A DNA stretch of 16,004 nucleotides from Pundamilia nyererei (lineage: Eukaryota). Positions within the stretch are counted from its first letter, which is position 1; the number at the start of each line of letters is the position of its first letter. Shown one piece after another: positions 402 through 16,004 of the stretch. Both the position numbers and the translations under genes were made by a program. The stretch is from contig NW_005187640.1 of assembly GCF_000239375.1 (NCBI RefSeq), positions 831,579-847,582 of the forward strand, in the 5' to 3' direction. The notes below the pieces were generated by a model. The model searched no databases. It saw only the letters and a list, made by a program, of their open reading frames with translations, and was not told the DNA's origin.

Positions 402-482
402 GCGACTCTCCTGGGAAATCTGAGTGGTCAGGAGCTCAAAACAATGGTGTCAACCAGCGAGCTGCAGAAAACAAAGGGCACA
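402..482 (+). CDS. Candidate upstream exon of the PARP4-like gene. AG acceptor at 400-401 (ttttaacacag|GCG), donor GTAAGA at 483. 81 nt, phase 0/0, reads ATLLGNLSGQELKTMVSTSELQKTKGT.
   Basis: Open 27-codon frame bounded by a pyrimidine-rich tract+AG and a strong GTAAGA donor. Joins in frame to the next candidate exon. No independent homology recognised. Confidence 0.3.
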
Positions 483-607: not shown

Positions 608-688
608 TTTCTTCACAAGCTCACCGCGAGGGCCGTCATCAGGGATTATGAAGACGGGAACCTGGACACCAGTGAGGCTGAACACGAG
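608..688 (+). CDS. Candidate exon of the PARP4-like gene (..LTARAVIRDYEDGNLDTSEAEHE). Acceptor AG at 606-607 or 618-619, donor GT at 689-690. Phase 0 end joins in frame to exon at 4213 (..EAEHE|GKKAELKSF..).
   Basis: Splice-site consensus on both sides. Frame continuity with the confidently called downstream exons. The motif ARAVIRDYEDG resembles the region following the vWA domain in PARP4/VWA5A/ITIH-type proteins (from memory, unverified). Confidence 0.4.
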
Positions 689-4212: not shown

Positions 4213-4308
4213 GGTAAGAAAGCAGAGTTGAAGTCCTTCATCATCGAGTTAAGCAAAGAGTTTTCCATCCTGTCTCAGTTTACCAGCTTCGTGGCCATTG
4301 AGGAACGG
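4213..4308 (+). CDS. PARP4: PARP4-like exon: GKKAELKSFIIELSKEFSILSQFTSFVAIEER. Acceptor AG 4211-4212, donor GT 4309-4310, phase 0/0.
   Basis: Open frame between consensus splice sites. The ..SQFTSFVAIEER motif is characteristic of the post-vWA segment of PARP4/VWA5A-family proteins. Frame-consistent with downstream exons. Confidence 0.6.
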
Positions 4309-4401
4309 GTTTGTCAAATCAGCCTTTTTTCACATTTACAGCTTGTTTTCCATTCTTTTAGCTTTTTTATCAAATATTTATTTAACTGATCTTATTTTTA
4401 G

Positions 4402-4533
4402 GACTCAGAGCAACCACAGCCTGGTTTTACAGACATCCCCAAGCTGATTGCAGAGGAAGATGTGGACTTCCTTCCCTACATTAACTGGATTTCTCCCGAG
4501 GATGATGAAGACCTAATAGAGGAAGAGTCTTCG
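4402..4533 (+). CDS. PARP4: PARP4-like exon (44 codons): DSEQPQPGFTDIPKLIAEEDVDFLPYINWISPEDDEDLIEEESS. Acceptor AG 4400-4401, donor GTATGA 4534.
   Basis: Open frame, polypyrimidine tract + AG upstream, GT donor, phase 0/0 continuity. Confidence 0.6.
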
Positions 4534-5123: not shown

Positions 5124-6742
5124 AGTCCCGACTACTCTCCTCCAGCTCCACCTACTTCTTCTTTTAAGGAGCTTGCTTCAGACGATGTTCCCCACCTTTC
5201 TTCTCCTGGACACCCGGCTCCCCCTCCGCCTCCTTCTTTTATGAAGCCTGCTTTTATGAAGCCTGCTTTTATGAAGCTTGCTTCAGACGATGTTCTCGAC
5301 CTTTCTTCTCCTGGACACTCGGCTCCCCCTCCGCCTCCTTCTTTTATGAAGCCTGCTTTTATGAAGCCTGCTTTTATGAAGCCTGCTTTTATGAAGCTTG
5401 CTTCAGACGATGTTCCCCACCTTTCTTCTCCTGGACACTCGGCTCCCCCTCCGCCTCCTCCTTTTATGAAGCGTGCTTCAGACGATGTTCCCCACCTTTC
5501 TTTTCTTGGACACTCGGCTCCACCTCCACGTTATTTATTTATGAGGCCTGCTTCAGAGGGTGTTCCCCATCTTTCTTTTTCTAGACCCCCACCTCCACCT
5601 TCTTTTATGAGGCCTGCTTCAGACGATGTTCCCCACCTTTCTTTTCTTAGACACTCGGCTCCACCTCCACGTGTTTCAGGACATATTCCACAAGGACCGT
5701 CCAGACCTTTTTCATTTTGTGGTTACTCTCCTCGTAGTCAATCCATGGATTCATTTTCATTTGGCATTTCATCATCATCAGACAGTCAGGCAGTGAAGGA
5801 CATCGATATTCCAATTCCGAGCTGTAGCACTCAGATTAGCAGGTCATCACTCCACACTCAAGCTTACACTTCAGCGATGAGTAATCAGGTACAGAGTGCA
5901 CTTGATTCTGTGTCTGATGAGGAAGAACAGAGTTCATCTGAGTATGTTGAAGGCGTTTCTTACAGGGCCTGTAAAAAGCCTGTAAAATACAAAGACGGAG
6001 CAGCAGCCAGCCGTCTGTCTTTCCTCCCAGATTCTTGTAGTTCTTTCTTTAAAGTCAGAGAACAACTTCGTGAGACGTCAGCTCCAGCGGATTTAGAGCA
6101 CCAAGCAAAACCTCACCTCCCAATATATGGTCAGGTAGGGAAAAGAGCCGAGTTTAAGAGTAAAGTCTTTCCTGAGAAGTCCTATTTGCCTCCCAAATTT
6201 TGCGGCCCCAGCATATATGGGAGTCCTAACATTGCTCCTGCAGCAGTACCGTCTCAGATGGTTGTTGAATCTGATGAAACAGCTCCTCTGTTTGTTGCAC
6301 AGACTGCCAGAGACAGAGAGCCGTCTTTTGGGTCAGCTAAGTTTACTACCAGTGGCTTTCACTTAGGTAGGTTCGGTAGCTCAAGCTCCACCTATGGTGG
6401 TGCTCCGGGATCTACAGTGGTTCCTGTGACGTCAGCTCCATCAGATTTAGAGCACCAACCAAAACCTGACTTGTGCTTATCATCATTAAGCTGTTATTTA
6501 CCTCCCACCCGTTCCGACAATGATGTTCCTGTAGGCCCTGCAGGGGCTCCTGAGAAGGCCGCTCGGCTTCATCTCAGAGGAATGGCTCCCTCTTATCGTT
6601 CACGCAAAGTTACGAGTGCATCACAACCTCACCATGAACTTGAAGCTCAGAGCAATGTTCGACAAAGAACGCCCATCATAGCTTTCGTCGCTGGCCATCA
6701 GGATCTCCCGACTAACCCTGTCCTGCGTCATCGGTCAGCTGT
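5124..6742 (+). CDS. PARP4: Large PARP4-like exon (1619 nt). Encodes a proline-rich, low-complexity, tandemly repeated linker followed by Ser-rich unique sequence. It does not end at the in-frame TGA 6744: a consensus donor GTGAGT at 6743 splices it onward.
   Basis: Acceptor tttctcctttcatag| at 5122-5123. One uninterrupted frame of 539 codons. Donor G|GTGAGT at 6743 precedes the stop and gives in-frame continuation into exon 6832. Confidence 0.65.
5160..5690 (+). repeat. In-frame coding tandem repeat. About 7 units of ~75 nt (FMK LASDDVPHLSSPGHSAPPPPP S/P), with a nested 15-nt repeat TTTATGAAGCCTGCT (FMKPA) present in 2 and 3 tandem copies.
   Basis: Direct inspection: repeated tttatgaagcttgcttcagacgatgttccccacctttcttctcctggacactcggctccccctccgcctcc units with decaying identity toward 5690. 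Confidence 0.9.
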
Positions 6743-6831
6743 GTGAGTCTCTGAACATTTCTACACACATTCTGTTTGTTAACTATGAGAAGTGTTTGTC
6801 TAACAGGTGGAAATGACTGTATGTTAACCAG

Positions 6832-6901
6832 GCTGAATGCAGCAGAATCTCCTGAAGCGCTGAAGCTCAAATGGATGAAGATCTTCCAGATGCAACATTC
6901 A
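6832..6901 (+). CDS. PARP4: PARP4-like exon: (V)LNAAESPEALKLKWMKIFQMQHS. Acceptor ttaaccag| at 6830-6831, donor GTGAGC at 6902. First nt completes the GT| codon from the previous exon.
   Basis: This is the only acceptor/phase combination that stays open across the junction. The alternatives at 6807 hit stops. Confidence 0.5.
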
Positions 6902-8186
6902 GTGAGCTTTTCGTGGTTTTATAGTCTTGGGTTCACTTAAGCAAACATAGCTGTTTATCACTCGGACAAAGCAACAGCTTCCTTTGGCTCTCTGACAGGT
7001 TAAAACTGCGAAGGAAGCGTAATTTTTTTACTGAATCACTTGTTAACATCTGTTTTATTTCTATGGGACTTGTCATTGTTAGAGTCATGGGTGGGTGGAG
7101 CCTATTCCAGCTGTCATGGGGCGAAAGGCGGAGTAGACCCTGGAGAGACTGCTAGTGTATTGCAAGGCTAACACAGAGAATTTAACCTCCTAGGACCTGG
7201 CGTCCACATGTGGACATCATATTCTGGGTTGTCTAAACCAAAATACAAAATTTTGGTAAAAACAAAGAATCACATAATTCTTTGTTTTTACATTCATCAG
7301 GTTCAATCAGCCCAAATAACGAGAAGAGAAAATGCCGTGTAAGAGTTCGGGTCTTACGAGGTTAAACATAACTGTCAGGTTAGGCTCAGACTAGGGTTTT
7401 AGTCTATGTGATATATTAACAGCAAACATCCGTTGTTTTGAAACTTTAAGCTGCATTTCAGAGTTTTATGATAGGAACATATAAAGAAAGCTTCCAGTGA
7501 TGCCCCTCTGCCTCCTTGTAGACACACCTGTCGTATCAATTTGAAAATTCTACCTCAACTCGTCACATTCACAAGATTTCCAGAAAACTTGACCTCCAAC
7601 CTTTACCTTAAACTAAAGGCCACTGGTATTCAAACTGGTCTGAGGTTTGTAGTGGCTGCACCTGTTTTTGAGTTACTGCATTCACAAGCTCAAGTGTCCA
7701 TGCTGCCCACCTGCCCAGCAGGGTGGAGACGGTACCCCTCCATCTTTTACAGCCAAGGGGTGAAAATCATTTTGACGCAGAAAGAATCGCAGCTAATGAT
7801 GAGTCTGGGATCATAATGGGGATATAAACAAGACCTTGCTATCACGTTTACCCAGAATGCAGTTTTTCAAATGGTATCCAGTTAATTATCAGAAAACAGA
7901 TAAAACAGCCACGCTTCTGTCAATCTACATCACAGATATTAAACTGGTAATATATGTCATGACAGTGATGCTCAAAGTTGGTCATAGAGTTAAAAGTGTT
8001 TTATCGTAGTGAACGTTTCATGTGGTTAGCTCCTGTGCTTTGGTAGTTAGCAAGGCTCAAAAAAGCTGGACAGAATTCTTAAAATGACCAAGGACAGAAC
8101 TGTAACCCACACCTTTGCACTCTGAGTGCATGCAAAAATGTAAACGTCACTTTGATATAATGGCGTTATTTTTATGCGTGTTGTAG

Positions 8187-8289
8187 GAAGGGTACTGGGA
8201 ACTAACCACAGAGCTGGGGGAACTACTTAATGTCAACGTGGACCTGTTTGCCAACGTGTTCCTGAAGAACAAAGGCATCCATTCTCTCG
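8187..8289 (+). CDS. PARP4: PARP4-like exon: EGYWELTTELGELLNVNVDLFANVFLKNKGIHSL(G). Acceptor ttgtag| at 8185-8186, donor GTGAGA at 8290. Ends in phase 1.
   Basis: Strong similarity to the human PARP4 C-terminal segment ..GSWKLTPELGLILNLNTNGLHSFLKQKGIQSLG.. (recalled from memory). Consensus splice sites. Confidence 0.7.
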
Positions 8290-9424
8290 GTGAGAGCTCG
8301 TTCAATTCTGATCTGGAGGTTTTATGAAAGTTAACATGTATGTACGCTTACTTGGGATCGTGTTAACAATGCATATAAAATGTGACTCACATCCACCAAG
8401 GTCTTTAAGGTCAACTTAAGATTTATTGGTGGAAAATTGACAAAAAGTCTCGAATCACTTAGAAACTGCAGTTCTTACACGTGTGTTTTGTTAAAGTACA
8501 TAAAGTGCCATATAAAGATTTACAGCATCAGGTTACATTTGAGGTCTGACCTAAGTAGTACTAAACAGTAAAAAGAAATGACGCATATCCAGTATATCCA
8601 CATAAATAAAACCTAATTCTTTGCATTTGTTTTCATGGCACTTCTTAAAGTTTACAAAGAACAGGAAACAAAGTGGTTCCCAACAAAAGCCGATGCTGGT
8701 CCTTTAAAACAAGCCCAGAGACTGATGGGTGGACAGATTTGTGCTCTGAGTGCTTCTTGTTTTTCAAGTTATTGTAAGTTTACTTAGTTTTATAATTATT
8801 ATGAGCTCACACTTAACACTTTACCTCGATGTCTGTAAGAAAGGTTTCGCAATAACCATTTTATACCAACACGTTCTCACTCACAAAGCACAACATTCTG
8901 CGCTAAATGACAAATCATCGATATATTACGCTTCCGATCACTCAACACGTCCCTATATTACAAGATCGGAAAAATGAGGAAACACGAGAACCATTTGGAA
9001 TGAATCTACACGTTTGTTTTACTCGCTTTGGAAAACACGATCCAACATCATTGAAGTGCTGGTTATGGTTTGGGATCAGGCTAGGGCTGGAATAACGCGG
9101 TGCGTAGCACAAGAACACGGAGGGTCTCCTGTCACATTCCTCAGGAACGTCCGGGACTCGGAAGTGAGAACGGGCTGTTTATATGCAGTTTTCTAGGAGC
9201 TCAGCTGTTAATTAACCTTATTTTTCATTATTTCTTTAACAAAATCAGGCACATGTTAAACCTGTAGATTACTCCCCAGCGCGACGTCTAAATGGGCAGC
9301 TGTTGTTTGAGATTGATTCATTATGTTGATTCTGTTCGTCTGGACGTTGCGTCTGGAACACTTCGGTTATAAAAGGACCATTTTGTGATTTCCTTTGGGA
9401 TCTTTTTTGCATGTGTGTTTGAAG

Positions 9425-9557
9425 GCGTGACAGCCCACAAAGATATCCTGAGGCTGGTGGCGACTCTTCTGGTTCTGCAGCTGATGAAAGCGAACAAACT
9501 GGAAGAAGGCAAACTGCTCCGCACCCTGTTCTGTCTGGAAGAAGCTTCTCAGTCCAG
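9425..9557 (+). CDS. PARP4: PARP4-like exon: (G)VTAHKDILRLVATLLVLQLMKANKLEEGKLLRTLFCLEEASQS(R). Acceptor tttgaag| at 9423-9424, donor GTCTGT at 9558.
   Basis: Matches human PARP4 ..VKGRECLLDLIATMLVLQFIRTRLEKEGIVFKSLMKMDDPSISR.. Phase 1 in / phase 2 out, consistent with flanking exons. Confidence 0.7.
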
Positions 9558-9786
9558 GTCTGTCCAACACAGGATGCACAACAGCTTAGAGTAAAATTTC
9601 TCTGCAGTTGTTACAAATCAGCTGAAATTAAGCTTGAAAAACATTTTGTACAAAATGTGATTTGATATATTAATGAAGCTTATTTCACTATGCCTTGCAT
9701 GACTTTAGAAATGCAGGTCTGGAAATATTTGCACCACGATGGTTTTAACAAGGTTGTTCACTACTGTGACTGTCTTTTTCATTCAG

Positions 9787-9994
9787 GCCTGAACGATGGG
9801 AGCAGGTGAAGAAGGCGGTGGACTGGGTTTGCTGGGCTGACCGACAGTACCCCTGTGTCTATTGTCGGCTAGAGTTTGGTTTGAGCTGGGAGTCCGCCAC
9901 CCGTCAGCTACTGGGTTATGAAAGCCTCCCTCCCTTCTCGCCTCTCTGTGGTCTTGATCTACAGAGGACAACGGCCCCAGTACTGGTCCAGTGA
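9787..9994 (+). CDS. PARP4: Terminal coding exon of the PARP4-like gene: ..PERWEQVKKAVDWVCWADRQYPCVYCRLEFGLSWESATRQLLGYESLPPFSPLCGLDLQRTTAPVLVQ*. Stop TGA at 9992-9994.
   Basis: Acceptor ttttcattcag| at 9785-9786. Matches the human PARP4 C-terminus ..AIKQASEWVRRTEGQYPSICPRLELGNDWDSATKQLLGLQPISTVSPLHRVLHYSQG* (the major-vault-protein-interaction region). Confidence 0.75.
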
Positions 9995-10600
9995 GAAGAT
10001 GCTGTGGACACCGTGTAGCCTTTCAGAGGGGATTACAGTAGCTTTAGATATGCTTGTAGATGAATATGCATGTATTCCTTTGCCTTTTAAGAAGAATTTC
10101 GTACTCTGTGTGTTTATACATGTATGGATAATCTCAAATGTCCTCTGCTGTAATCTAATTTCTCAAATGTTACAAATACAGGCCATTTACACGGAGCATT
10201 TACTGCACATAGAGCAGTTGTTTTGTCATCTGTGAAGTTTGCCCGAAAAGCAAACTGGTGTTTGATCCAGGTCAGGTGGTAAAATGTACCTAATTTGAGA
10301 CACAAGTTGTTATTTTTTTTATTGCATAACACAGTATCCATTTTTTAAAACACTTCATAGCTGTTGGTGTTGGTGGCAGCAGTTGTTGTTTTGTGCAGTG
10401 GGATAATGGTGGAGGGTAAATACCTCTGATGCTGGAGGACCGATGTTGACTCTCCAGTGATTGGGTAGCAGAATGTAGAGTCTCCCCTGGTTACGGGCAT
10501 CAGCCAGGTTTGTGTCCTTTGTGTTTGATGCACATTGTAACGTGATTTTATAGTCAGTCAGTGACTTGATACTTCTTTACATGTAACAAAGGTTGTTGTT

Positions 10601-10606
10601 AATAAA
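10601..10606 (+). terminator. Candidate polyadenylation signal AATAAA for the PARP4-like transcript (~0.6 kb 3'UTR).
   Basis: First canonical AATAAA downstream of the stop at 9994 on the + strand. Confidence 0.3.
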
Positions 10607-10989
10607 TTGCTACTGTGACCTGTTTGTGCCGGTGCTTTACCTTGCTGCCTTTTACAGCTGCTGCCGTGTTAAGTTGTTTGCTGAGGGAGGCTGAAGAAAT
10701 TGAATACATGCAAAGGGTGCCAGGTTTGAGGGTCTCGGGATCTTATCACTGCTTTTTGAAGATGAAGTGGTTTTCTTAGGTTCACCAAGCTATCACATCC
10801 GGCTGACACCAAGATGGTCATAGTAAGGAGCTCAGTCATTTAGGTGAGAGAGGTGTTGACTGGCATGAAAACCATCACTATGTTCAGGATGTCCCATCTG
10901 TGCTGAGAACAGAGGCAATGAGTTGAATGTGTTTTTCAACAGATTGAAATGCTCACCTCCCTCCTGATTTACCCGTAGTCGTCCTTCAG

Positions 10990-11620
10990 TCCATGCCACT
11001 CTCTCTCCACTTTGCACCTCAGGCTACGTCTACACTAATCCGGATAAATCTGAAACACTCCGCGTCCACACTATCATTTTCAAAGAGTTGTGCATCCACA
11101 CTGAAGCGACCTAAAATGCTTACATTCCAGTCCAGCGCATGCATGTAAAGTAAGAAGATTCGACCCGCCTCATTTCTGTCTGCCGTTTATTTTCTTTCCG
11201 GCTCTTTGAAAATTGGCAAAATGTGGAGGAAAAGCAGCGAGTTTTTTAAATGGATTAACAATGAGGTGGAGTTGTTGCTGCGAGGAACACAAAAGCACAA
11301 ATTGCAAAAGCGAGTGAGAATTAAAGAATTTGAAGAAAAGCTCTCTGGAGCATGTGCAGACTGATATTAATCTTTAACAGGGCTGTCAAACCTGAGAGCT
11401 GACAGAACAACTGCTGCTCCGCTGTCTCAGTTTAATTGGTCACATGACTGCATCATATAACTAAAATGCGTCATCTTTCCAAAAGTCTGCGGTTACGCTG
11501 GCCACACCGCCGCGTGAAAACAGCGTTTTCAGTTGTTTCTGCTTTTTCAAAAAGCTCCGTTTTCCTTGACCGAAAACGCCGTCTCAGTGTGGAGTGTACA
11601 CATGTACAGGTTATAATTAA
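10990..11620 (+). mobile_element. Putative non-autonomous DNA transposon-like block with imperfect inverted ends (..CGTCTACACT.. / ..AGTGTGGAGTGTACAC..). Contains a 48-codon ORF at 11221-11367 (MWRKSSEFFKWINNEVELLLRGTQKHKLQKRVRIKEFEEKLSGACAD).
   Basis: Shared words at both ends in inverted orientation (tacact / ccacact / ttttcaaag vs ctttttgaaaaag). The small ORF has a W-x-E-x-LL pattern reminiscent of Myb/SANT-like (MADF/Harbinger-type) DNA-binding domains. The boundaries and family are uncertain. Confidence 0.25.
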
Positions 11621-12455
11621 CGACAGTTCAACAAGTTTCCGTGTTCAACAGCATTTCCTCCTTATTTGGTTGTCTGCCCCCCCAGATGTTTCCTGTGGAC
11701 CCCGGATCACTAGTTGCTAAGCAGAGACAAAGTCTTTACCCTAGAAATGATGCTTCATGTCTATGTGTATGTAAGCGTGTTAGGCCTTCATTCACAGCAT
11801 GCAGGTCATTGCATCAATATATCAGTTCAGACATGGCGCTGAACGACGCTTTAAGCCTTCCTGTATGCTCAACTCTATCATGAGCACAAATGCAATGTGC
11901 GTAATAACCTGATTGAAACTATGTTTAATAAATGGAATAAATGACACTGCTCAAAGCTAAATAAAAAGATGTAAAAGAATCAACCTGATATAAAATGATA
12001 TAATCCCCACACTTGCACATTCATAGTTCATTTGCTCGAATCCGGTTTCATAGCCCTAGTTCTTGGTCATTGTGTTGTACTTTGTTTCTGTAAATAAAAT
12101 ATTTTAATCACTAAGCTCTGCTTTTGGTTTCATTTCTCACTGCTGGCTACCGAGCCCTGACACCCCCAAGGCAACTGTTCCAGATGGGAGCTGTTACGAA
12201 ATCAGTTTTACCTCGGTTCTTTTTATTCCTCGAGCATCCAGAGACGGCACCGGACTCAGTCATTTTCACAAAACCTTTATTCATCTTTACTCATCTTTAC
12301 TCTTCTTCATTCATCTTCATTTAAGCATGCATCTTCTAGAAGGGAAGACGAGGCCGGTGGGGCCCTCTGCAAAAAATCTTCACCCCTTTGTTCGTTACAG
12401 CCAGCTTTATAGAGGCGTCCCCATCATAAAACCCCCCACAGTGTGCTGCAAACTC

Positions 12456-12605
12456 TGTCTGTGTCTATGTGCACGAGCACATGAATGCCTACATGTGCGT
12501 TCCCGCGTGTCTATGTGAGTGCTCGTGTGTGCCTGTGTGCGCATACCTGTGTGTATGTGTGTGTGCACATGAGTGAGTGTGCGTGTGGATGTGTGTGCGT
12601 GACAG
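12456..12605. repeat. TG/CA-rich imperfect low-complexity block (GTGTGYGYRYR-type).
   Basis: Directly visible degenerate (TG)n / (TGTGCG)n composition. Confidence 0.85.
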
Positions 12606-13299
12606 TTAAAACACTGTGGGTGTAGGTGACTCCCTTGGTCATAAAACCCCTCTCCCTTCCAGACCACAGTTATCCAGTTACAAATGTTGAGACCCCCACC
12701 CAAACATCCTCTGGGGAATTTCCACTCAGCATTAACTCTTCTATGTTTTACTTTCACAGTTCAAGTGGGGGAGGGGTCTCCTACAATCTACTCCTAAGTT
12801 CACGACACAGTGAGGCCTTTATTATATTGAGGGCAGTGTCAGTGTCTCTACAACAGTTTACATTCTATGATAACACATTTCTAAACTCTAAAATCAGCTA
12901 AACATTCTTCAGAGCCCACAAATCCAACACAGATGGGTCCAGTTGTCCAGTATGTTTATCTTTAAAAGAAACAGCAAATCGAGCTATTTCTTACCATGTC
13001 AAAACAGCATCCCAGTAAAGGAAAGCTTCAGCTCTCAAGGTTGCTCAGTGACAAACTCTTCCAAGTCTGGAACATAAAGTGGTCGTTTGATAAAGTGGGA
13101 GACACAAACAGATGAAAAAGGGTTTTACTCCATAAAAGAGCTGGCCTTCCTCAAAATAGCTGAAAAGCGTTTCTACCAGGATGAAACAAATAGTTGGGTA
13201 GCGCCACCACCTTTTCATTCTCCAAGACCACGACTCCCCAACAGCAGACAGCAAGCCAGTCACCCTCTTGCTTCACTCAGTCGAATGCTGAAGAATTGA

Positions 13300-13425
13300 C
13301 CTGGAATGAGACAATAGTTTATGCAAGGCATATCAACAACAGCCTTCTGGGTGTCCTTGTGCGGTTTTGCAAGGATCGAGTGGGAGCTACTGCTGATATC
13401 AAAGATATTTTAGTTCTCTCGTGAA
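13300..13425 (+). mobile_element. Short BEL/Pao-like LTR-retrotransposon polyprotein fragment (..YARHINNSLLGVLVRFCKDRVGATADIKDIL..).
   Basis: Motif LLxxLxRFRxxxVAxxADIEKMF is characteristic of BEL/Pao polyproteins. Here LLGVLVRFCKDRVGATADIKDIL sits in an ORF that terminates immediately. AT-rich LTR-like sequence with AATAAA follows (13440-13640). Confidence 0.3.
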
Positions 13426-14135
13426 AAGACACTAAAAAAGAAGAACTTTGTGCAGTACTTTTGGTATTTATATTTGTAATTGAGCTATATTAGACCTATT
13501 TCTTTTATTTTGTAACTTTGTAATATATTGTATTATTTAATTAGTTCAGTCTGTTACTGTTCTTTTTCTCTTGGAGCAACTGTAACAACATTATTTACTT
13601 CGGGATTAATAAAGTTTTCTGATTTTGATTCTGATTGAGAAGAGAACTGTTACTCCTTCACATCAAAAGGAAGCCGGTGAAATGGGTCAGACATCTGGAT
13701 ATGATGCTTCTTGGACACTTGGATGAGGTGTTTGGGGAATGTTTATCACAAGACCCTGTGGTAGACCCATGACATGCTGGTGACATTATGTCTTTGGAGC
13801 CCAGAAAAAGAAGCATAGGTGGCTGGACAGGAGGCATAGGCATCCCTTCTTAGACTCGTGCTCCTGAAATCCAGGAGAAACAGCAGGAAATGAAATGATG
13901 TATCGGTGGAATGGGTGTGTTTTTATTTTTGTCAAGCTGTGAAACATAAGTAAATCTCAGGACGTGCTATCATGTGCATTTCCAGTGAAAGCGTTAGAGA
14001 ATATCACACAAGAGATTTTCTGGGGTGGATGGAGAAAAGGAGTAGGAGGAGTAAGGTAAGTCACATTACACGGATAGCTTTAGTCAGAAAGGTGCCAGTG
14101 TTCAGCAGCTTTCATCTTCTTTTCCCTTTCTGCTC

Positions 14136-14308
14136 ATGGAGAACGTGTATGGACAACAATTCTGCTTTCCACAGCTCCTCAACACCTCCTGTAGGAAGCC
14201 GCTGCAACATCACAATCAGACCATTTTTCTCTGCATTCTGCTTTGCTGCATCTCTCTGCTCACAGTGACTCTCAACGTCCTGGTCATCATCTCTATCTCC
14301 CACTTCAG
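14136..14308 (+). CDS. taar: TAAR gene exon 1: MENVYGQQFCFPQLLNTSCRKPLQHHNQTIFLCILLCCISLLTVTLNVLVIISISHF(R). N-terminus with two N-glycosylation sequons plus TM1. Donor GTGTTA at 14309, ends in phase 2.
   Basis: ATG-initiated open frame. Short glycosylated N-terminus followed by a hydrophobic helix. ..ISISHF|R-QLH joins the TM1-loop motif conserved in TAARs (SHFKQLHTPTN). Confidence 0.7.
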
Positions 14309-14644
14309 GTGTTAAAGTAAACTTTACTGTGATATATTGTGTTTGACTTGAGCATACTCGGATTAGCTACAGAGTACTTCACATTTACTAAACTGTGATA
14401 GCTCTCTTTTACAAAGGAACAGCTGATGTGATAAATGTTTGTACTATTTAACTGAAATGATTTCATATTCTGACCTCCTCCTCTCAGAATGATGTGGAAA
14501 CGAGAGGTTTGCCCTACTTTGTTGCACTGGATTGTTTATTGTATGTTGTTTTACTTTCAGAACTGGTGCATTACTGTAGCCTTCCACCTGCTGCAGGTTT
14601 ATTAATATTATGTTACGTCTTTCTTTCTGTTTTTTTCTTCTCAG

Positions 14645-15464
14645 GCAGCTTCACAACCAAACCAACCTCTTCCTCCTCTCTCTCGCTGTCTCAGACCTCC
14701 TTGTTGGCCTCCTGCTGATGCCGCCTCGAATCCTCCTTTTAGGGGGCTGCTGGTTTTTGGGCACCTTCATGTGTGGACTGTTTTACTATGCCTCTTTTGT
14801 TCTCACATCTGCCTCAGTAGGAAACATGGTGCTTATTTCATTTGACCGGTATGTAGCTATTTGTGACCCCTTGTCCTACCCCACCACAGTTACTGAGAGA
14901 AAAGTCCAAATCAGTGTCTGTCTGTGTTGGGCCTGTTCACTGCTGTATAACGGCACAATACTAAACAACTTCCTGAAGCAGCCAGACAGATATAATTCTT
15001 GTGACGGGGAATGCATAGTTGTAATTAATTTCATAACTGGTGCTTTTGATGTCGTAGCTACCTTCATCGGCCCCACTGCTGTGATCATATTTCTGTACAT
15101 GAGAGTATTTCTGGTGGCTGTGTCTCAGGCTCAGGCTATGAGATCTCATGTTGCCTTTGTTACTTCAAAGGGTTCAGTTCACGTTGCCATTAAGAAGTCT
15201 GAGAGAAAAGCAGCTACAACTATTGGTGTTGTTGTGGTTGTGTTTCTGATGTGTTTCTGTCCTTACTTTTATCCCTCTCTCGCAGGGCAGGACACATCAA
15301 CCAGTGTGGAATTTTCAGTTTTTGGGGTCTGGTTACTTTATTGTAATTCCTGTCTAAATCCACTTATCTATGCGTTTTTCTATCCCTGGTTTAGGAAGAC
15401 TGTTAAACTGATAGTTACATTGCAGATTTTGCAGCCTGACTCTTGTGATGCCAACATACTGTAG
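14645..15464 (+). CDS. taar: TAAR gene exon 2 (TM2-TM7 and C-tail). (R)QLHNQTNLFLLSLAVSDLLVGLLLMP..FDRYVAICDPLSY..CPYF..NSCLNPLIYAFFYPWFRKT..*. Stop TAG at 15462-15464. Total predicted protein 330 aa.
   Basis: Acceptor tttttttcttctcag| at 14643-14644. Rhodopsin-family GPCR hallmarks (LAVSD, DRY, CWxP-like CPYF, NPxxY). The TAAR-specific fingerprint NSxxNPxxYxxFYxWFxK in TM7 is present. Confidence 0.85.
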
Positions 15465-15624
15465 AATTAAAATCCTATCACTCCTCAGTTAGTCAAATAC
15501 ACTGTAAAGACCAAAGGTCAAAATGTGAAAAAATAAGTTGATATCTGACATCTTCTTCAGCTGTTAATGAAAAATTGCATCAATTATTTGTAATAATGTA
15601 TTAATATTGATTATTACCAGCTGT

Positions 15625-15630
15625 AATAAA
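15625..15630 (+). terminator. Candidate AATAAA polyadenylation signal for the TAAR transcript. A second AATAAA lies at 15989-15994.
   Basis: Canonical hexamer ~160 nt downstream of the TAAR stop. Confidence 0.3.
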
Positions 15631-16004
15631 CAATATTAATCAAGAATTCATCAAGATCCTTTAACTTCTTCATGAAAAATGCACATGCATACTCCAGAGT
15701 CACTATGAAGACTTGTGTCTCATCTTCATTCACTCCACTCTCGTCAAAGAACCTTTTTATTTTGTGGATGGTTCCTTAGCTATTACAAATGGTTCTTTAA
15801 AGAACAAAAGGTTCTTCATCCTTAGCTGTCTAAGTTTGATGGTGTGAATGGCATAAATATTTACTCACTATAACGAGGCTGTTAAATTATACTGTGTGTT
15901 TTCTTTGTGTGCATGTGTGTGCGAGGGGGGAGGGCGGGTTACCTGGTGATTACCCTTTAAGAGCAGATGGTAGGAAACTGAATATTCAAATAAAGTTAGA
16001 AATA

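Follow-up and report, generated by a model that had tools for sequence, protein, structure and literature searches.

A nested coding minisatellite in the linker exon of a cichlid PARP4 gene, probably part of a teleost version of hypervariable 'exon 30'

We analysed a 16,004-nt stretch of the Pundamilia nyererei genome (contig NW_005187640.1; hereafter the window), which contains part of the gene for PARP4, the only enzymatic component of the vault. The linker exon of this gene begins with an array of tandem repeats. The interpretation that we favour, and consider probable, is that the array is an in-frame coding minisatellite in a fast-evolving, disordered PARP4 tether, the teleost version of the hypervariable 'exon 30'. 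A first-pass annotation had drawn attention to the repeat but overlooked its main context: the entire exon, beyond the repeat, is the fish counterpart of exon 30. Overall, the repeat is real, correctly located and of modest interest, within what looks like a fairly ordinary fast-evolving protein tether.

The array occupies the 5' end of the linker exon (5124-6742) and runs on the plus strand from 5163 to 5678 (516 nt, or 172 codons; 25% Pro, 14% Ser). Tandem Repeats Finder, proposed by the first-pass annotation as a check of period and copy number, returned overlapping arrays within 5161-5670 with periods of 15, 66, 75, 105 and 120 nt. Period 15 was found at 5232-5283 (3.5 copies, 94%) and at 5337-5403 (4.5 copies, 96%), period 75 at 5386-5670 (3.9 copies, 80%), period 105 at 5161-5388 (95%, score 414) and period 120 at 5232-5478 (96%, score 459). 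The 105- and 120-nt periods are super-units, consisting of FMKPA copies plus one long unit. With unit boundaries set by codon-registered parsing in the frame of the exon, the array resolved into six long units and five nested 15-nt units:

5163-5237 (+), U1, FKELASDDVPHLSSPGHPAPPPPPS; 75 nt
5238-5267 (+), two identical 15-nt FMKPA units, TTTATGAAGCCTGCT
5268-5342 (+), U2, FMKLASDDVLDLSSPGHSAPPPPPS; 75 nt
5343-5387 (+), three identical 15-nt FMKPA units
5388-5462 (+), U3, FMKLASDDVPHLSSPGHSAPPPPPP; 75 nt; 97% identical to the unit after the H. burtoni assembly gap
5463-5537 (+), U4, FMKRASDDVPHLSFLGHSAPPPRYL; 75 nt; the sole PPxY motif
5538-5603 (+), U5, FMRPASEGVPHLSFSRPPPPPS; 66 nt
5604-5678 (+), U6, FMRPASDDVPHLSFLRHSAPPPRVS; 75 nt

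Tandem Repeats Finder and codon parsing agree on a coding, in-frame repeat with FMKPA nested twice and then three times, as had been described. The "seven or more" long units that had been counted came down to six, and segments headed by FM[KR] or FKE number 11 when the five short units are joined to the six long ones.

Repetition on this scale far exceeds what chance would give. Exact direct repeats reach 63 nt, whereas 500 codon shuffles yielded none longer than 19 nt, and the protein self-match in an offset scan was 20/20, against a shuffle maximum of 9. Every unit length (75, 66 and 15 nt) is a multiple of 3, and no minus-strand open reading frame crosses the array. The long units fall into two groups, with identities of 93-96% among U1-U3, 92% between U4 and U6, and 77-85% across the groups. 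Because the long copies carry specific substitutions, they are not a trivial assembly stutter, and the window contains 0 N bases. All five 15-mers are identical, and their count is the least secure part of the array structure. Further along the linker exon there is a second, older duplication, at 6075-6120 (+, TSAPADLEHQAKPHL) and 6429-6474 (+, TSAPSDLEHQPKPDL), the two copies lying 118 codons apart; N. brichardi has one extra copy of this module, adjoining an assembly gap.

The gene around the array was identified by splicing. Nine segments with AG/GT boundaries join into one open frame:

402-482 (+), PARP4 exon, ATLLGNLSGQELK...; ITIH-like region
608-688 (+), PARP4 exon, FLHKLTARAVIRDYEDG...
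4213-4308 (+), PARP4 exon, GKKAELKSFIIELSKEFSILSQFTSFVAIEER
4402-4533 (+), PARP4 exon, DSEQPQPGFTDIPKLIAEEDVDFLPYINW...; last conserved segment ahead of the linker
5124-6742 (+), PARP4 linker exon, 1619 nt, 540 codons; AG acceptor, GTGAGT donor; the largest exon in the window
6832-6901 (+), PARP4 exon, LNAAESPEALKLKWMKIFQMQHS; the C-terminal conserved part begins
8187-8289 (+), exon of the MVP (major vault protein)-interaction domain, EGYWELTTELG...
9425-9557 (+), exon of the MVP-interaction domain
9787-9994 (+), last PARP4 exon; stop codon at 9992-9994

The spliced product of 840 aa matches human PARP4 (PDB 9bw6/9bw7/11jf) with E 6e-66, and it does so at both ends: human residues 1096-1214, the ITIH/vWA-proximal segment, are matched by residues 1-118 (stretch E 2.5e-35), and human residues 1571-1715, the MVP-interaction domain, by residues 682-825 (stretch E 2.9e-28). 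Many teleost PARP4 proteins are 85-100% identical to the products of the flanking exons, so that the gene identity proposed in the first-pass annotation is borne out. Homologues of the C-terminal domain carry PF26156 (PARP4_MVP-ID), and the PARP4 genes at the orthologous loci of A. calliptera and H. burtoni carry PF00644, PF08487, PF00092 and PF26166. A Pfam scan of the C-terminal domain and of the spliced protein with a local library gave no match and is uninformative as a domain test. The BRCT, WGR, PARP catalytic, VIT and vWA parts of PARP4 fall outside the 16-kb window. An LPD22 match on the linker exon (E 0.005, below the cutoff) was dismissed as compositional.

The linker exon fills the gap left unaligned between the two matches, equivalent to human PARP4 residues ~1215-1570, which places it where it had been said to lie, after the vWA/ITIH-like region and ahead of the C-terminal MVP-interaction domain. 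In humans, exon 30 (residues 1223-1582) is the largest exon of the gene, is almost wholly disordered and is present in all human isoforms (PMC4038475). Human-rhesus dN/dS (the ratio of non-synonymous to synonymous substitution rates, or omega) for this exon is 1.75, both sequence and length are described as "highly variable among vertebrates", and in mammals the orthologous exon shows site-specific positive selection alongside some invariant residues (PMC4038475). An intrinsically disordered segment joins the ITIH-like region of PARP4 to the MVP-interaction domain (PMC10450202), and cryo-electron microscopy of the vault found the linker, located in the vault lumen in the human structure, too mobile to resolve (PMC12280208). 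Judged by this alignment, the window exon is the positional orthologue of human exon 30.

The cichlid linker is also predicted to be disordered. AlphaFold2 was run on a 786-aa construct with a 19-sequence alignment, and residues 25-608 were modelled without secondary structure, at predicted local distance difference test (pLDDT) values of 31-49 (36-49 in the array). In the same model the C-terminal domain, an internal control, is helical with pLDDT 50-80. The composition of the linker exon is 16% Ser and 15% Pro. The low pLDDT is moderate evidence for disorder, in agreement with the composition of the array and with the literature on the human orthologue (PMC4038475; PMC10450202), and so the disordered segment that had been claimed is upheld as a prediction.

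The likeness to the mammalian exon 30 (PMC4038475; PMC10450202) therefore lies in a single largest exon in the same slot between the ITIH/vWA-like and MVP-interaction parts, predicted disorder, highly variable length, and dN/dS above 1 beside conserved flanking exons. In contrast, the cichlid and human linkers have no detectable sequence similarity. The published work covers mammals and birds, whereas the window is from a fish, and these papers describe no tandem-repeat architecture, while in the cichlid linker a 75-nt/15-nt minisatellite and larger in-frame indels visibly drive changes in length.

To compare the exon among cichlids, we used N. brichardi (L001), the contigs L002 and L003, A. 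calliptera (L004) and H. burtoni (L005). The frame of the linker exon, open over 540 codons in the window, is uninterrupted in five cichlid sequences. Indels within the exon are divisible by 3 in 9/9 cases for L002, 7/7 for L003 and 10/11 for N. brichardi, where the sole non-triplet indel abuts an N-run; in the neighbouring introns only 3/15 are. The AG acceptor and the SPD/RPH-YSPP start of the exon are likewise conserved among cichlids. The RefSeq PARP4 product at the orthologous A. calliptera locus is 1906 aa long and uses the same stop codon as the window, and the annotated H. burtoni product is 1699 aa; both are therefore too long to omit the linker exon. The NCBI PARP4 model of Lates calcarifer includes a 391-aa linker. 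From the conserved frame and these gene models of other species, we infer that the array is present in mature mRNA.

Array structure is different in all four cichlid sequences that include the array. The A. calliptera chromosome locus starts at the equivalent of window position 6059, just downstream of the array, and offers no copy-number comparison; its product length, 1906 aa against 1699 aa in H. burtoni, suggests by arithmetic only an array of similar size. The N. brichardi array amounts to ~3.5 units: the first is short, the next two are full (FMKLAADEVP[PH]LSF...) and the terminal one is partial, with no FMKPA repeats. In L002, a single short unit precedes a terminal partial one. L003 has one unit more than L002, its second unit being 98% identical to U4 over 42 nt, and an inverted copy of a unit junction (~1519-1568), whose peptide EARFIKEGGRG corresponds to PPPPSFMKRAS read on the opposite strand; this inversion is probably a de Bruijn graph artefact in a short-read contig, and it illustrates how the array can scramble assembly from short reads. 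In H. burtoni, a U1 head identical to that of the window is followed by a gap of 157 N (L005 536-692) inside the array, then by a unit that matches U3 at 97% identity, a pair of diverged units (81-86% to window units) and a terminal partial unit, FMKPASEGVSGHIPQG, giving at least 4.5 units plus the gap. The N. brichardi locus was at first sight a candidate paralogue (BLAST identity 77-83%), which was ruled out by a substitution-only intron divergence of 5.3-5.7%; the low BLAST identity is due to indels.

These comparisons qualify the claim that the expansion is both lineage-specific and recent. A U1...U3 block is apparently common to the window and H. burtoni. The orthologous U1 and U3 of the two species are closer than the paralogous units within the window (93-96%), and the block therefore predates the species split. 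By contrast, tandem FMKPA copies are confined to the window among sequences seen so far, and relative to the terminal partial unit of H. burtoni, the window has gained 141 nt (the U5 tail plus U6) within the former terminal unit. U1 itself is a mosaic: its centre is like U2/U3, while at both ends it resembles the short unit that opens the array in L002, L003 and N. brichardi. Thus part of the expansion is young, as had been supposed, but part of it is not. Comparison with relatives, another check that had been suggested, gave a similarly divided answer: the unit family is present in N. brichardi, L002, L003 and H. burtoni, but array architecture differs among them and no such unit was found in non-cichlids.

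Searches beyond these species had little to add. A search with the whole exon against 1.84 billion representatives returned only two matches, both already known cichlid open reading frames, in support of a cichlid-restricted repeat, and an exact-sequence look-up of the window open reading frame found no other contig with a copy. The L. calcarifer linker has polyproline runs, and the cichlid-type unit was not found in it. A protein search with the repeat region alone gave no matches, not even the N. brichardi homologue, probably owing to compositional filtering, and is thus uninformative. In the sequences compared, the repeat expansion is confined to cichlids and for the most part to haplochromines, and only some of it is peculiar to P. 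nyererei.

Beyond the array, the whole linker exon is hypervariable. It runs to 540 codons in the window, against 396 (L002), 419 (L003) and, with the gap included, ~335 (H. burtoni). H. burtoni (L005 ~1429-1435) lacks 525 nt (175 codons, in frame) of window 6186-6717, and the N. brichardi exon combines a 78-codon loss with a module gain. We calculated pairwise Nei-Gojobori dN/dS for the part of the exon downstream of the array, and the values for the window against four other cichlids ranged from 1.7 to 3.0:

Window vs L002: dN/dS 2.24 (51.7 non-synonymous vs 7.3 synonymous differences, p=0.016)
Window vs N. brichardi: dN/dS 1.96 (p=0.004)
Window vs A. calliptera: dN/dS 2.97 (p=0.006)
Window vs H. 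burtoni: dN/dS 1.85 (not significant)

Between L002 and L003 dN/dS is about 1. The dN of the exon, 0.07-0.095, compares with a flanking non-coding divergence of ~0.017-0.027; when the window is aligned with the A. calliptera chromosome, the exon shows 6.06% mismatch and the ~8.5 kb of non-coding DNA beside it 0.8-2.5%, and substitution density in the exon is ~3.6x that of flanking non-coding DNA. For the four C-terminal PARP4 exons, the proportions of non-synonymous (pN) and synonymous (pS) differences are 0.010 and 0.008. Among the young unit copies of the array, 12/12 nucleotide differences are non-synonymous. These data establish an omega of at least 1 for the linker exon and suggest one above 1.

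Non-coding divergence is itself uneven. Divergence from A. calliptera (window 6059-16004 vs L004) rises towards the linker exon, and intron divergence from L002 is 3.9% upstream and 1.1% downstream. This gradient hints at heterogeneous ancestry or at a raised mutation rate around the linker exon.

The array could differ from our interpretation already at the level of the assembly or of the transcript. It is quite unlikely that the array, or its copy number, was over-expanded or collapsed in the source genome. Five identical 15-nt units, exact stretches of up to 63 nt shared among U1-U3, and the assemblies of two other cichlids that break or scramble here (the 157-N gap of H. burtoni, the inverted fragment of L003) speak for such an error, and the P. 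nyererei source may be a short-read draft assembly. However, the long units differ by unit-specific substitutions ~80-160 nt apart, every unit is in frame in a window free of N, H. burtoni independently has the same U1 head and a U3-like unit on either side of its gap, and N. brichardi has the same unit family at the same position in the exon. That the repeat part is absent from mature mRNA, through exon skipping, an alternative 3' end or an internal intron, and is then no protein feature, seems highly improbable. Ensembl/UniProt teleost PARP4 models do omit the linker exon (P0005, P0007) or stop ahead of it (P0035), and the N. brichardi annotation splits it off as a separate 'uncharacterized' gene (P0003). 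Against these models stand the in-frame indels and the 540-codon frame open in five cichlid sequences, the conserved acceptor and exon start, the RefSeq products of A. calliptera (1906 aa) and H. burtoni (1699 aa), the 391-aa linker of the L. calcarifer NCBI model, and the presence of exon 30 in all human isoforms (PMC4038475).

If the array is a coding repeat, it could still have arisen without selection for its content. A purely neutral expansion, in which slippage-prone DNA sits in a spacer, only the frame is selected and the repeat is functionless, is a serious possibility, though not the one we favour. It would accommodate the tolerated large in-frame indels (175 codons lost in H. burtoni; 78 codons lost and a module duplicated in N. 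brichardi), an array architecture that is different in each species, the L002-L003 dN/dS of about 1 and the lack of a canonical SH3 or EVH1 motif. Yet neutrality alone does not predict an exon dN several-fold over flanking non-coding divergence, and dN/dS above 1 in three comparisons (p=0.004-0.016), the 12/12 non-synonymous differences of the young copies, and site-specific positive selection with some invariant residues in the mammalian counterpart exon (PMC4038475) all tell against it. At the other extreme, the units could form a multivalent docking platform, presenting polyproline motifs to profilin, SH3, WW or EVH1 partners with copy number tuning valency, which we regard as very unlikely. 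The array holds four P5-6 runs, 11 overlapping PxxP, one PPxY (PPRY in U4) and conserved S-P sites, and it is the polyproline core that is most conserved when units are compared among cichlids. But a motif scan of the array gave 0 matches to the SH3 class I ([RK]xxPxxP) and class II (PxxPx[RK]) consensus and 0 to EVH1 ([FWYL]PPPP), 2/6 units (U4 and U6) have lost the P5 run (PPPR), and the human linker is inside the vault lumen (PMC12280208), where cytoskeletal partners would be unexpected. The idea of SH3, WW or profilin-type ligands put forward in the first-pass annotation thus finds little support in the sequence.

Several observations weigh against the interpretation of the array as a minisatellite in a fast-evolving, disordered tether, or against single parts of it. 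The dN/dS tests cover 170-335 codons with few synonymous changes, and most share the window lineage and are not independent. An omega above 1 could partly reflect relaxed constraint and alignment noise near indels; the 175-codon deletion of H. burtoni shows that much of the exon is dispensable, which fits relaxed constraint as well as adaptation. Each species contributes its copy number from a single assembly, those of H. burtoni and N. brichardi have gaps within or close to the exon, an inverted artefact is present in L003, and the short arrays of the short-read contigs L002 and L003 may be collapsed. The AlphaFold2 alignment is shallow (19 sequences), which makes low pLDDT only moderate evidence of disorder. 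Inclusion of the array in mRNA is read from frame conservation and from the models of other species. Among such models, the Ensembl/UniProt A. calliptera PARP4 P0035 (1106 aa) ends in the intron following exon 4213-4308, reading through into the equivalent of window intron 4309-4444, with a read-through peptide 95% identical to the window intron translation. Such an end may come from faulty annotation or may represent a true short isoform in which linker and vault-binding domain are both missing.

A coding minisatellite in a teleost exon 30 could be generated and retained in the following way. The linker would tether the catalytic and ITIH/vWA-like body of PARP4 to the C-terminal domain that docks on major vault protein inside the vault. 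Replication slippage may account for the 15-nt FMKPA units, which are identical, and the 75-nt units may be made and reshuffled by unequal recombination or gene conversion among themselves; the latter is suggested because of the 105/120-nt super-period, the mosaic U1 (itself an indication of conversion or unequal exchange) and the 141-nt insertion inside the former terminal unit. Each long unit would add 25 residues to the tether, usually with one stiff P5-6 stretch of polyproline-II type. Such changes would be tolerated, perhaps favoured, if the segment, instead of forming a fold, is a flexible spacer and a surface that evolves rapidly, with selection mainly keeping an open frame that connects to the vault-binding domain. 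A bolder proposal is that the linker is under diversifying selection through repeat turnover and point substitutions, that the array is part of an interface of the vault in host-pathogen (or other) conflict, and that unit number and sequence are adaptive and possibly polymorphic in haplochromines. We consider this proposal somewhat unlikely. Were it true, it would extend an arms-race signature from mammals and birds to teleosts, with a visible mutational mechanism.

Comparable repeats are known from other proteins. The 48-bp exon-3 repeat of human DRD4 is a coding, proline-rich variable-number tandem repeat with documented population polymorphism and reported SH3 binding. Like the cichlid array, it is an in-frame minisatellite encoding a proline-rich unstructured segment, changes copy number by slippage or unequal recombination, and has units that gather non-synonymous variants. 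Polymorphism and SH3 binding belong to DRD4, however, whereas the cichlid array is known from sequence alone, and the two differ in unit length and in protein context, which for PARP4 is the vault lumen. The polyproline tracts of formin FH1 domains, which are profilin ligands, also combine several P5-6 runs with short spacers in a disordered segment of varying tract number. In contrast to formins, the cichlid protein has no FH2 or other actin-related domain beside the array, only four of its tracts reach at least 5 prolines, and the vault setting makes profilin an unlikely partner, so that the resemblance is compositional only. Closer in context are duplications in the same region of two other PARP4 proteins. 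In the killifish Nematolebias whitei (P0006), HPxxIAAFDSDSGNAAA occurs twice (residues ~280-300 and ~459-479, 179 aa apart), and in a tetrapod-like PARP4 (P0033), FPxAAAAGGSS occurs twice (residues ~294-350, 36 aa apart). Both exceed shuffles (16/20 and 14/20 against a maximum of 9), but unlike the multi-unit nested array they are two-copy duplications, and their sequences and periods are unrelated to the cichlid repeat.

In kind, then, a coding minisatellite in a disordered linker and the hypervariability of PARP4 exon 30 were already known. What is new is the cichlid repeat family itself, the extension to teleosts of an exon-30 signature that published work describes in mammals and birds, and the unrelated internal repeats in the killifish and tetrapod-like linkers; a literature search returned nothing on cichlid PARP4. 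That the disordered linker exon is a positive-selection hotspot in mammals and birds is the one strong evolutionary clue to PARP4, and a fish radiation shows the same pattern of omega above 1, substitution density several-fold over neutral and in-frame indels, with the nested minisatellite as one route by which the linker changes length. Should long reads and population data confirm this, the hundreds of closely related cichlid species would be convenient for asking whether the length or the repeat content of the linker is under selection and what the linker contacts. A practical consequence is that the array marks a site where cichlid assemblies break or scramble and PARP4 gene models split or truncate.

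Other features of the window lie outside the PARP4 coding sequence. A two-exon trace amine-associated receptor (TAAR) gene at 14136-14308 and 14645-15464 (+), 4.1 kb downstream of the PARP4 stop codon, encodes a 7tm_1 domain with the TAAR motif NSCLNPLIYAFFYPWF, and its spliced protein is identical to XP_005749279.1, TAAR13c-like of P. nyererei, which assigns the window to this Lake Victoria haplochromine or to a very close relative. PARP4-TAAR synteny is also found in N. brichardi, A. calliptera and H. burtoni. Within the 3.5-kb PARP4 intron, there is a BED zinc finger open reading frame at 2109-2372 (+; PF02892, E 1.4e-7), and the 390 nt around it (2263-2653) also match, at 87% and on the opposite strand, the A. 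calliptera locus downstream of the TAAR gene. This match of its surroundings marks the BED reading frame as a dispersed, transposon-derived (hAT/ZBED-like) copy. Finally, an (AC)16 microsatellite and an imperfect TG-rich tract, at 2919-2950 and 12548-12601, look like ordinary vertebrate simple repeats.

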